Shown here: positions 2,817 to 4,140 of the stretch, piece after piece | How the letters are laid out: the number at the start of each line of letters is the position of its first letter | Numbering within the stretch: position 1 is the first letter of the stretch | Source: a virus | Taxonomy: Duplodnaviria; Heunggongvirae; Uroviricota; Caudoviricetes | Length of the DNA: 32,958 bases | IMG/VR virus record: IMGVR_UViG_646862326_000003 | Coordinates: 1 to 32,958 of that record | Strand: one strand, 5' to 3' | The notes under the pieces: model-generated | Databases searched by the model: none | Told to the model about the DNA's origin: nothing | What the model saw: only the letters and a program-made list of their open reading frames with translations | Translations under genes and position numbers: made by a program

Positions 2817-2864
2817 CAGGGAAGTTGGAGATGACAAATACAAAATGGTTCAGGAAACGCTTAA

Positions 2865-2873
2865 CAGATTATC
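2865..2873. repeat. IS1 target-site duplication, left copy (CAGATTATC)
   Basis: Identical 9-mer directly abuts both IS1 ends (2865-2873 and 3642-3650). Confidence 0.85.
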
Positions 2874-2888
2874 GGTAATGACTCCAAC

Positions 2889-3392
2889 TTATTGATAGTG
2901 TTTTATGTTCAGATAATGCCCGATGACTTTGTCATGCAGCTCCACCGATTTTGAGAACGACAGCGACTTCCGTCCCAGCCGTGCCAGGTGCTGCCTCAGA
3001 TTCAGGTTATGCCGCTCAATTCGCTGCGTATATCGCTTGCTGATTACGTGCAGCTTTCCCTTCAGGCGGGATTCATACAGCGGCCAGCCATCCGTCATCC
3101 ATATCACCACGTCAAAGGGTGACAGCAGGCTCATAAGACGCCCCAGCGTCGCCATAGTGCGTTCACCGAATACGTGCGCAACAACCGTCTTCCGGAGACT
3201 GTCATACGCGTAAAACAGCCAGCGCTGGCGCGATTTAGCCCCGACATAGCCCCACTGTTCGTCCATTTCAGCGCAGACAATCACATCACTGCCCGGCTGT
3301 ATGCGCGAGGTTACCGACTGCGGCCTGAGTTTTTTAAGTGACGTAAAATCGTGTTGAGGCCAACGCCCATAATGCGGGCAGTTACCCGGCAT
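2889..3392 (-). CDS. insB: IS1 InsB (167 aa; made as InsAB' fusion by -1 frameshift)
   Basis: Sequence [50 protein letters not shown] matches IS1 InsB and overlaps insA in the expected arrangement. Confidence 0.9.
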
Positions 3393-3586
3393 CCAACGCC
3401 ATTCATGGCCATATCAATGATTTTCTGGTGCGTACCGGGTTGAGAAGCGGTGTAAGTGAACTGCAGTTGCCATGTTTTACGGCAGTGAGAGCAGAGATAG
3501 CGCTGATGTCCGGCGGTGCTTTTGCCGTTACGCACCACCCCGTCAGTAGCTGAACAGGAGGGACAGCTGATAGAAACAGAAGCCAC
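3311..3586 (-). CDS. insA: IS1 InsA (91 aa)
   Basis: [43 protein letters not shown] is the IS1 InsA zinc-finger/helix-turn-helix protein. Confidence 0.9.
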
Positions 3587-3641
3587 TGGAGCACCTCAAA
3601 AACACCATCATACACTAAATCAGTAAGTTGGCAGCATCACC

Positions 3642-3650
3642 CAGATTATC
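3642..3650. repeat. IS1 target-site duplication, right copy (CAGATTATC)
   Basis: Same 9-mer as 2865-2873, immediately after the IS1 right end. Confidence 0.85.
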
Positions 3651-3849
3651 AACTTTCATTACTTAAAAAATTAGATGACAAGACTCCACTACATCCTTCA
3701 AGCGATGTCTTCCGCTCCTGTCCTAGTCGTGTGGAAAAAGCATTTATAGCAATGGGGAAATGGGGGCTTGTGACCAAATCAAGAGAAGGTTTCTGTATTA
3801 CCGATAATGGACGGGAAATGATTGATTCTGCGGAGAGGGCATATAGCGA

Positions 3850-4140
3850 ATGAAAAATATATTGCTTAATAACTGGCTGAAGATTTCAGTCATGAAAAAT
3901 GGTGATTTGTCGCTAGCTGATATTAAACGCGATAAAAACACTGGGGATATGGTGGAATCAACTATAGCCATTTATGCGGATAAATTAAATCTCCTGTCTG
4001 ATGTGGTCAATTTACTTGTTAAACGCGCTGTATTTCATAAGCAAATTTCATCCGTGGATGAACTGACAAAATTAACGACAGAAATCGCCAGCTATTGCGC
4101 TGATGAATTTAAGAAGCTGAACGACAAAAGGAGCTGGTAA
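3850..4140 (+). CDS. Hypothetical early protein (96 aa)
   Basis: ATGA overlap with the upstream (IS1-split) ORF and TAATG overlap with the downstream ORF indicate a translationally coupled early-operon gene. AT-rich. Confidence 0.55.
   Translation: MKNILLNNWLKISVMKNGDLSLADIKRDKNTGDMVESTIAIYADKLNLLSDVVNLLVKRAVFHKQISSVDELTKLTTEIASYCADEFKKLNDKRSW

Follow-up and report, generated by a model that had tools for sequence, protein, structure and literature searches.

A complete IS1 element of the IS1A type interrupts a small early-operon gene of the P2-like prophage in Escherichia coli IHE3034 (CP001969.1), a neonatal-meningitis strain. The window, i.e. the whole stretch of DNA analysed (32,958 nt), covers this prophage between the stop codons of the integrase gene (position 1) and of ogr (32958); 7,853 nt were compared with the record of IHE3034, and all were identical. 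As a whole, we consider it likely that IS1A inserted recently and in this strain only and that it left a null allele of an 81-aa gene; with less confidence, we expect that it exerts polarity on the replication gene A located downstream.

The sequence of events can be envisaged as follows. An IS1A copy resident in the ST95-type host lineage of E. coli moved, in the way usual for IS1, into an 81-aa accessory gene (phrog_11056) in the early operon of the IHE3034 prophage and duplicated 9 bp of its target, CAGATTATC. Since then, transcription from the early promoter Pe would have to pass through antisense IS1 sequence, giving 971 nt of RNA that is untranslated and in part C-rich, and Rho-dependent polarity would strongly lower the expression of orf81-83 and A. 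Immunity, cox, int (excision), B, all late genes, ogr and the cargo genes would be retained. This is a textbook event and already known: a standard IS1A, a standard 9-bp duplication and a well-documented route of prophage damage. It reveals neither a new mechanism nor a new element.

According to Pfam, PHROG and the annotation of P2, the gene order int, C repressor and divergent cox-orf78-B-orf80...orf81-orf82-orf83-A is that of a P2-like (Peduovirus) early operon. It comprises the following features:

1-996, minus strand: int
1090-1401, minus strand: HTH repressor gene (C-type)
1395-1423, plus strand: probable early promoter Pe, TTGACA-17-TAATTT
1506-1862, plus strand: cox homologue, first gene of the early operon, 5' of the IS (PF10743 Phage_Cox, E 2e-29; annotated as Cox family protein in MS7163)
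1873-2043, plus strand: orf78-like gene
2040-2540, plus strand: B homologue (replication), 5' of the IS (95.5% nt identity to the P2 region containing B)
2562-2586, plus strand: terminator-like hairpin after B, at the same place as the annotated putative rho-independent terminator of P2
2604-2816, plus strand: orf80-like DUF2732 gene, last intact gene 5' of the IS (PF10809, E 4e-9; phrog_128)
3850-4140, plus strand: orf81-like DUF5405 gene encoding a 96-aa protein, first gene 3' of the IS (PF17399, E 5e-27)
4140-4364, plus strand: orf82-like TraR/DksA zinc-finger gene (PF01258)
4361-4636, plus strand: orf83-like DUF5405 gene (PF17399)
4626-6911, plus strand: replication gene A, 761 aa, intact, 985 bp 3' of the IS (PF05840 Phage_GPA)

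P2 (AF063097: Pe-cox-orf78-B-terminator-orf80-orf81-orf82-orf83-A) has the same gene order, and the position of the terminator-like hairpin is conserved. Nucleotide identity to P2 amounts to 95-97% in B and in orf81 through A, with 96.6% for the region containing A; the repressor and cox regions of the IHE3034 prophage have no megablast-level match in P2. PF26815 (Phage_RepB) was found for B in identical neighbours. The probable Pe was read from the sequence and placed by comparison with the Pe annotated in P2, where the -35 box likewise overlaps the repressor start; the consensus promoter scan did not report this site (1395-1423). With the genes and the probable Pe so arranged, IS1 is located downstream of the early promoter region and upstream of A, as had been proposed.

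A near-identical sister prophage is that of E. coli MS7163, which adjoins pflA as the IHE3034 prophage does. The late gene set (Q P O N M L X Y K lysABC R S V W J I H G FI FII E T U D ogr) is complete and collinear with the MS7163 annotation. In A and all 27 late-region proteins (P to ogr), there are 0 stops or indels compared to MS7163; single amino-acid changes affect 2 proteins of this set, and the A protein is identical to the MS7163 replication endonuclease. Judged by this comparison, IS1 is the only disruption in an otherwise intact prophage.

IS1 and its target site

The element and its borders are composed as follows:

2865-2873: left copy of the 9-bp target-site duplication CAGATTATC, abutting the IS end; present as a single copy in MS7163
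2874-3641, minus strand: complete IS1, IS1A type, 768 bp, with IRR at 2874-2896 and IRL at 3619-3641
2889-3392, minus strand: insB' frame, 167 aa, DDE transposase domain (PF03400, E 5.9e-78)
3311-3586, minus strand: insA, 91 aa, zinc ribbon and HTH (PF03811, E 1.5e-21; PF12759, E 1.5e-30)
3329-3335, minus strand: A6C slippery motif for the -1 frameshift from insA to insB'
3607-3634, minus strand: promoter of IS1 itself in IRL, CTGCCA-16-TATGAT, from the consensus scan, pointing away from A
3642-3650: right copy of the 9-bp target-site duplication CAGATTATC, abutting the IS end

Members of the IS1 family are recognized by a length of about 768 bp and imperfect inverted repeats of about 23 bp (GGTAATGAC... 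and GGTGATGCTGCC...), and both are found at 2874-3641. The element begins with GGTAATGACTCC and ends with GGCAGCATCACC; its terminal inverted repeats comprise 23 nt and are imperfect, with 78% complementarity (2874-2896 versus 3619-3641). The transposase genes run antisense to the phage early operon, and the 232-aa InsAB' product had already been called in the source record. Over 768/768 nt, the element is 100% identical to copies annotated as 'IS1-like element IS1A family transposase', which are present on plasmids of MS7163 and S88 (pS88) and in the chromosomes of UTI89, NU14, UM146 and SF-173. Compared to the IS1A copies of E. coli, the sequence, the layout of insA, insB' and A6C and the inverted repeats are the same, and the location alone differs. 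All sequence features of this copy are intact, and it is putatively competent for transposition.

The probability that a given 9-mer recurs by chance at one fixed position is about 4e-6. The empty site was sought with a reconstructed, IS-free query of 1,124 nt. This query matches MS7163 in one piece with 100% identity and is present in full length in 53 complete E. coli genomes. Among the phage records, it matches the Yersinia phages vB_YpM_115 and vB_YpM_117 (98.3%), which carry the intact module and whose records give Y. pestis as host. MS7163 is 100.000% identical to the window over positions 1-2873 (2,873 bp) and 3642-10802 (7,161 bp), and in MS7163 both blocks overlap by exactly one CAGATTATC; over 10797-32958, there are 12 mismatches and 0 gaps. 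Of the public contigs with a gene for the neighbouring 96-aa protein, 10 were sampled, and 10/10 have the intact 81-aa gene upstream of it.

The original prediction had read this locus from the letters of one genome as a plain case of IS1 transposing into an early-operon ORF and duplicating 9 bp of target, and this reading is borne out. A direct sequence check found the IS1 coordinates, the 768 bp and the perfect 9-bp repeat to be right to the base. Excision of the IS together with one repeat copy does yield an 81-codon ORF with an ATGA overlap to the next gene. The expected empty site appeared in the alignment with IS-free prophages, above all MS7163, which has 100% identity, a single CAGATTATC and an annotated 81-aa gene; the reconstructed ORF itself occurs in both Yersinia phages and in 53 complete E. 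coli genomes, MS7163 among them. Together, these data demonstrate IS1 transposition with a 9-bp target duplication.

Since IS1 is a multi-copy element, with 11 matching sites in the median genome, and repeats of this kind are known to cause assembly errors, an assembly artefact was also considered, as was recombination between two IS1 copies instead of simple transposition. Both are extremely improbable. The IS is complete and its 9-bp duplication perfect, the target is single-copy and continuous in MS7163, and the sequences on either side come from one and the same prophage, in the right order and orientation. After an exchange between two IS1 copies, contiguous flanks would not carry matching target duplications.

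In the window, CAGATTATC occurs 5 times, compared to 0.19 expected. A role as a repeated element or as a preferred IS1 target was rejected: the 3 extra copies, in A, T and U, have unrelated flanks and were therefore set down to chance and codon usage.

The split 81-codon gene

The small accessory gene between the orf80-like and the orf81-like gene was hit in an AT-rich part. Two fragments remain:

2831-2873, plus strand: 5' fragment, 14 codons and 1 nt, now ending at TAA TGA in the IS end
3651-3853, plus strand: 3' fragment, without an in-frame start before GTG 3731, its stop overlapping the next start (ATGA)

When 2831-2873 is joined to 3651-3853, 246 nt in frame result that encode 81 aa. The TGA (3851-3853) of the restored ORF overlaps the ATG (3850-3852) of the orf81-like gene. 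At present, the ORF stops after 15 codons at TAA TGA provided by the IS end. The 81-aa gene is thus a null allele, cut after 15 codons, and the remnants 2831-2878 (15 codons) and 3731-3853 (40 codons) should be regarded as pieces of one pseudogene. As the ORF ends after 15 codons and the 3' fragment has no in-frame start before GTG 3731, the orf81-like gene has lost its ATGA coupling.

The intact gene in MS7163 encodes WP_000185625.1, and phrog_11056, a group of unknown function, matches the 81-aa ORF from end to end (E 1e-59). Very few members exist, with 5 clusters in 5.8 billion proteins and 4 matches in 1.84 billion representatives, the latter search having used P0001 (99% identical) in place of the reconstructed protein. 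Several of them represent the same 81-aa gene in other lineages, where it has suffered a frameshift or a truncation. One true diverged homologue, P0007 (74 aa, 47% identity), retains the motifs LTD[YF]Q..LLK, TPL, FRSCPS and G[FY]CITD. Intact 81-aa alleles differ at 8 variable sites, 5 of them non-synonymous and 3 synonymous. The ORF is thus a real gene under weak constraint. In P2, which is free of IS, the ORF has no counterpart, since orf80 abuts orf81, and it is likewise absent from the prophage of DSM 30083, the type strain of E. coli, in which orf80 also leads directly to orf81. Judged by this distribution, it is an accessory and not a core early gene.

Several lines of evidence touch on the nature of the 81-aa protein. 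Pfam yielded winged-helix families below threshold only, and PHROG a weak match to MotA-like activators (E 0.0034). A low-confidence AlphaFold model calculated from the single sequence has a pLDDT of 65 and a helix-helix-helix-hairpin arrangement with winged-helix-like topology; its best Foldseek matches, all with E > 0.001, are the N-terminal domain of T4 MotA and MarR-type winged helices or regulators. No defence-system model of PADLOC matches the protein. Together, this gives a weak hint that the 81-aa protein might adopt the winged-helix fold of a small DNA-binding protein or regulator.

The features of the gene bear on the question of whether the insertion matters to the phage at all. It may be near-neutral: the ORF would be dispensable, read-through or an unrecognized promoter would provide enough A, and the prophage would still replicate and form particles. 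The absence of the ORF from P2 and the DSM 30083 prophage, its frameshifted or truncated versions in other lineages and the weak constraint suggested by 5 non-synonymous versus 3 synonymous sites are in line with this. In addition, GGAGAGGG, located 11-14 nt before the start of the orf81-like gene, may serve this gene as its own ribosome-binding site, so that coupling may not be required for its translation. Furthermore, the IS-bearing prophage measures about 33 kb and is thus as large as P2 (33.6 kb), so packaging size poses no problem. The evidence from the transcribed region, considered below, points in the other direction, and we regard a near-neutral insertion as possible but rather unlikely. 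It is the main alternative to polarity.

Transcription beyond IS1 and gene A

When IS1 inserts into an operon, it is strongly polar via Rho whichever way it is oriented, as known from classic work on gal and lac. This polarity is usually strong, not absolute. In the classic cases, a promoter-proximal gene was hit and a premature stop was followed by a long untranslated stretch, as is the case here. In contrast to gal and lac, polarity in the IHE3034 prophage is putative, and a phage early operon is normally repressed in the lysogen, so that an effect would be seen only upon derepression.

From the premature stop (codon 16) to the next start codon, 971 nt of RNA are untranslated. Within this stretch, 22% of the 78-nt windows have a C/G ratio of at least 1.5, compared to 5.5% in the phage's own early genes. 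The ratio peaks at 3.5 around 3592-3715, with just 1.07 overall for the 971 nt. In the plus-strand transcript of the IS, C exceeds G (negative GC skew) over 2900-3350. These properties are compatible with polarity on A and make it plausible. A terminator within IS1 was reportedly found by Hubner, Iida and Arber in 1987, as cited in PMC12095673.

Between 2150 and 6885, no promoter-like site on the plus strand was reported by the consensus scan, an insensitive method that also missed the probable Pe. The single promoter-like site reported within 2150-6885 is that of IS1 itself, located in IRL. Hybrid promoters created by IS1 are said to have been described by Prentki et al. in 1986, likewise cited in PMC12095673. 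At the IRL junction, TTGGCA-17 nt-AACTTT was considered as a hybrid outward promoter and rejected; its -10 box matches at 2/6 positions.

The consequences would depend on gene A, which in P2 is cis-acting and essential, so that another prophage could not supply it. [quoted passage not shown] Furthermore, late gene expression of P2 depends on replication. If polarity lowered A, the prophage would consequently be largely unable to grow lytically. By analogy with P2 and with the classic IS1 insertions, we favour, with moderate confidence, that Rho-dependent polarity lowers the expression of orf81-83 and A and severely impairs the prophage for lytic growth.

A near-neutral insertion would have to accommodate 971 nt of untranslated RNA ahead of three coupled genes and A, downstream of which the consensus scan reported no promoter-like site, as well as the classic polarity of IS1 in either orientation. 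Phage records argue against it, too. IS1 is present in 20/50,697 of them, among others in P1, SfIV and RCS47, with 98-99% identity, and 0 of these 20 belong to P2-like phages. P1, SfIV and RCS47 are viable phages with IS1 that were deposited as phage genomes; none is P2-like.

With regard to the amount of gene product, A may be needed in small quantities only.

Age of the insertion and related prophages

The insertion had been called recent because the 9-bp duplication is still perfect. The conclusion stands, whereas the argument does not: a perfect 9-bp repeat is weak evidence of age, since 18 bases stay unchanged for very long. Instead, a recent date follows from three other observations. 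First, the flanking prophage DNA has 0 substitutions in 10 kb compared to MS7163. Second, the IS is 100% identical to the resident IS1A copies of related strains. Third, a second genome with the insertion was not found. The two junctions of the occupied site read AACAGATTATCGGTAATGAC and GCATCACCCAGATTATCAAC, and the empty site reads TTAACAGATTATCAACTTTC. The occupied site was detected in 0/5,426 complete E. coli genomes. The exact left junction is absent from the GTDB species representatives, a collection that does not include IHE3034, and the 40-aa remnant ORF (3731-3853) is on record in one contig only, CP001969.1. This supports a recent insertion that, on the present data, is probably private to IHE3034. 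Because identical IS1A copies are present on related plasmids and chromosomes, the locus is a clear case, and one that can be dated, of IS elements moving inside a single lineage. The comparative paper on IHE3034 describes neither the prophage nor its IS.

Other prophages carry a single IS and are otherwise recognisable, as in IHE3034. In Sp4 of O157 Sakai, nu1 is disrupted by an IS (PMC2669165). The prophage of MS7163 contains ISEc12, and in that of DSM 30083 ISEc12 is inserted in a cargo ATPase gene. Compared to such 'grounded' prophages, the IS1 of IHE3034 is located in a non-essential ORF, and any defect would arise by polarity on a cis-acting replication gene and not by coding loss.

These cases raise the question of whether the insertion was positively selected. 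It would lock the prophage, and the host would keep immunity, cargo and helper functions without the risk of lysis. The only near-identical sister prophage, that of MS7163, was independently hit by a different IS, ISEc12, which is located exactly at the overlap between the stop of terminase gene P and the start of portal gene Q. ISEc12 is also found in other P2-like prophages, e.g. that of DSM 30083, and every other gene of the IHE3034 prophage is intact. On the other hand, the event is confined to a single genome with no sign of spread, and the IS of DSM 30083 affects a cargo ATPase gene and not a lytic function, which fits random IS traffic. The cargo proteins match no known defence family, and two observations cannot separate selection from drift. 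Selection for a locked prophage is hence improbable. We attach slightly less credence still to a generalized form, in which IS elements polar on the cis-acting A or on portal expression would represent a recurrent, selected 'grounding' of prophages by ST95-type E. coli. If it were true, the host would keep immunity, the hotspot cargo genes and a late-gene set able to help P4-type satellites. P4-type satellites do not need A or B of P2.

A recent IS1A insertion with putative polarity on A has a practical implication for annotation: the IHE3034 prophage looks complete, and inducibility or transducing activity should not be assumed. Together, IHE3034 with IS1 and MS7163 with ISEc12 form a natural pair for the effect of a single IS on the behaviour of a P2-type prophage.

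Insertion sequences in the sister prophage and its relatives

The prophage of E. coli MS7163 is the sole near-identical sister of the window prophage and lacks IS1. Instead, it carries a 2.58-kb ISEc12 (IS21 family) at positions 10944-13524 of its locus (L003), so that each of the two sisters harbours one single, different IS element. ISEc12 is inserted precisely at the overlap between the stop codon of terminase gene P and the start codon of portal gene Q (window 10797-10802), where CTCATC was duplicated. This insertion cuts Q off from the ribosome-binding region upstream. ISEc12 was also found inside other P2-like prophages, namely those of GN04171, MS20653, DSM 30083 and JCM 20135. 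In the E. coli type strain DSM 30083 (locus L017, 3679-8482), the element interrupts a cargo gene for an AAA ATPase within the A-Q hotspot, at a site different from that in MS7163.

Substitutions between the sisters

Ten of the 12 substitutions that distinguish the window from the MS7163 prophage are grouped within 686 bp (window 15951-16636), a segment spanning the L, X, holin and lysozyme genes. The remaining prophage DNA common to both (about 32 kb) differs at only two sites. The cluster looks like a short recombination patch, the donor of which would be another P2-like phage.

Cargo and accessory genes

The cargo genes of the window occupy two variable regions that correspond to the tin/old and Z/fun positions of P2. 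Two further ORFs follow replication gene A.

Cargo genes and the ORFs after A in the window
7751-8524, cargo gene
8636-9418, cargo gene
25134-25976, cargo gene
6911-7569, 150-aa DUF3850/ASCH/DUF7415 protein and 68-aa ORF, immediately after A

Two cargo proteins (257 and 260 aa) had no match in Pfam or PADLOC; the third (280 aa) contains DUF5677, and its gene is followed by a short integrase pseudogene fragment according to the MS7163 annotation. The cargo genes are candidates for lysogenic conversion or defence. Whereas P2 has orf91 after A, the window has the 150-aa protein and the 68-aa ORF at that place. One related prophage, in GCA_964037525.1, carries a 335-aa PAPS-reductase-family gene between the orf83-like gene and A (locus L009, 3787-4794), which shows that accessory genes are tolerated at more than one early-operon position.

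Further copies of the IS1 target 9-mer

The IS1 target 9-mer CAGATTATC occurs five times in the window versus 0.19 expected from shuffles. The three further copies (window 5862, 29331 and 31086) are located in A, the tape-measure gene T and U. The sequences flanking them are unrelated, and in two cases the 9-mer is read in frame as Gln-Ile-Ile codons. This surplus is probably due to chance combined with codon usage.
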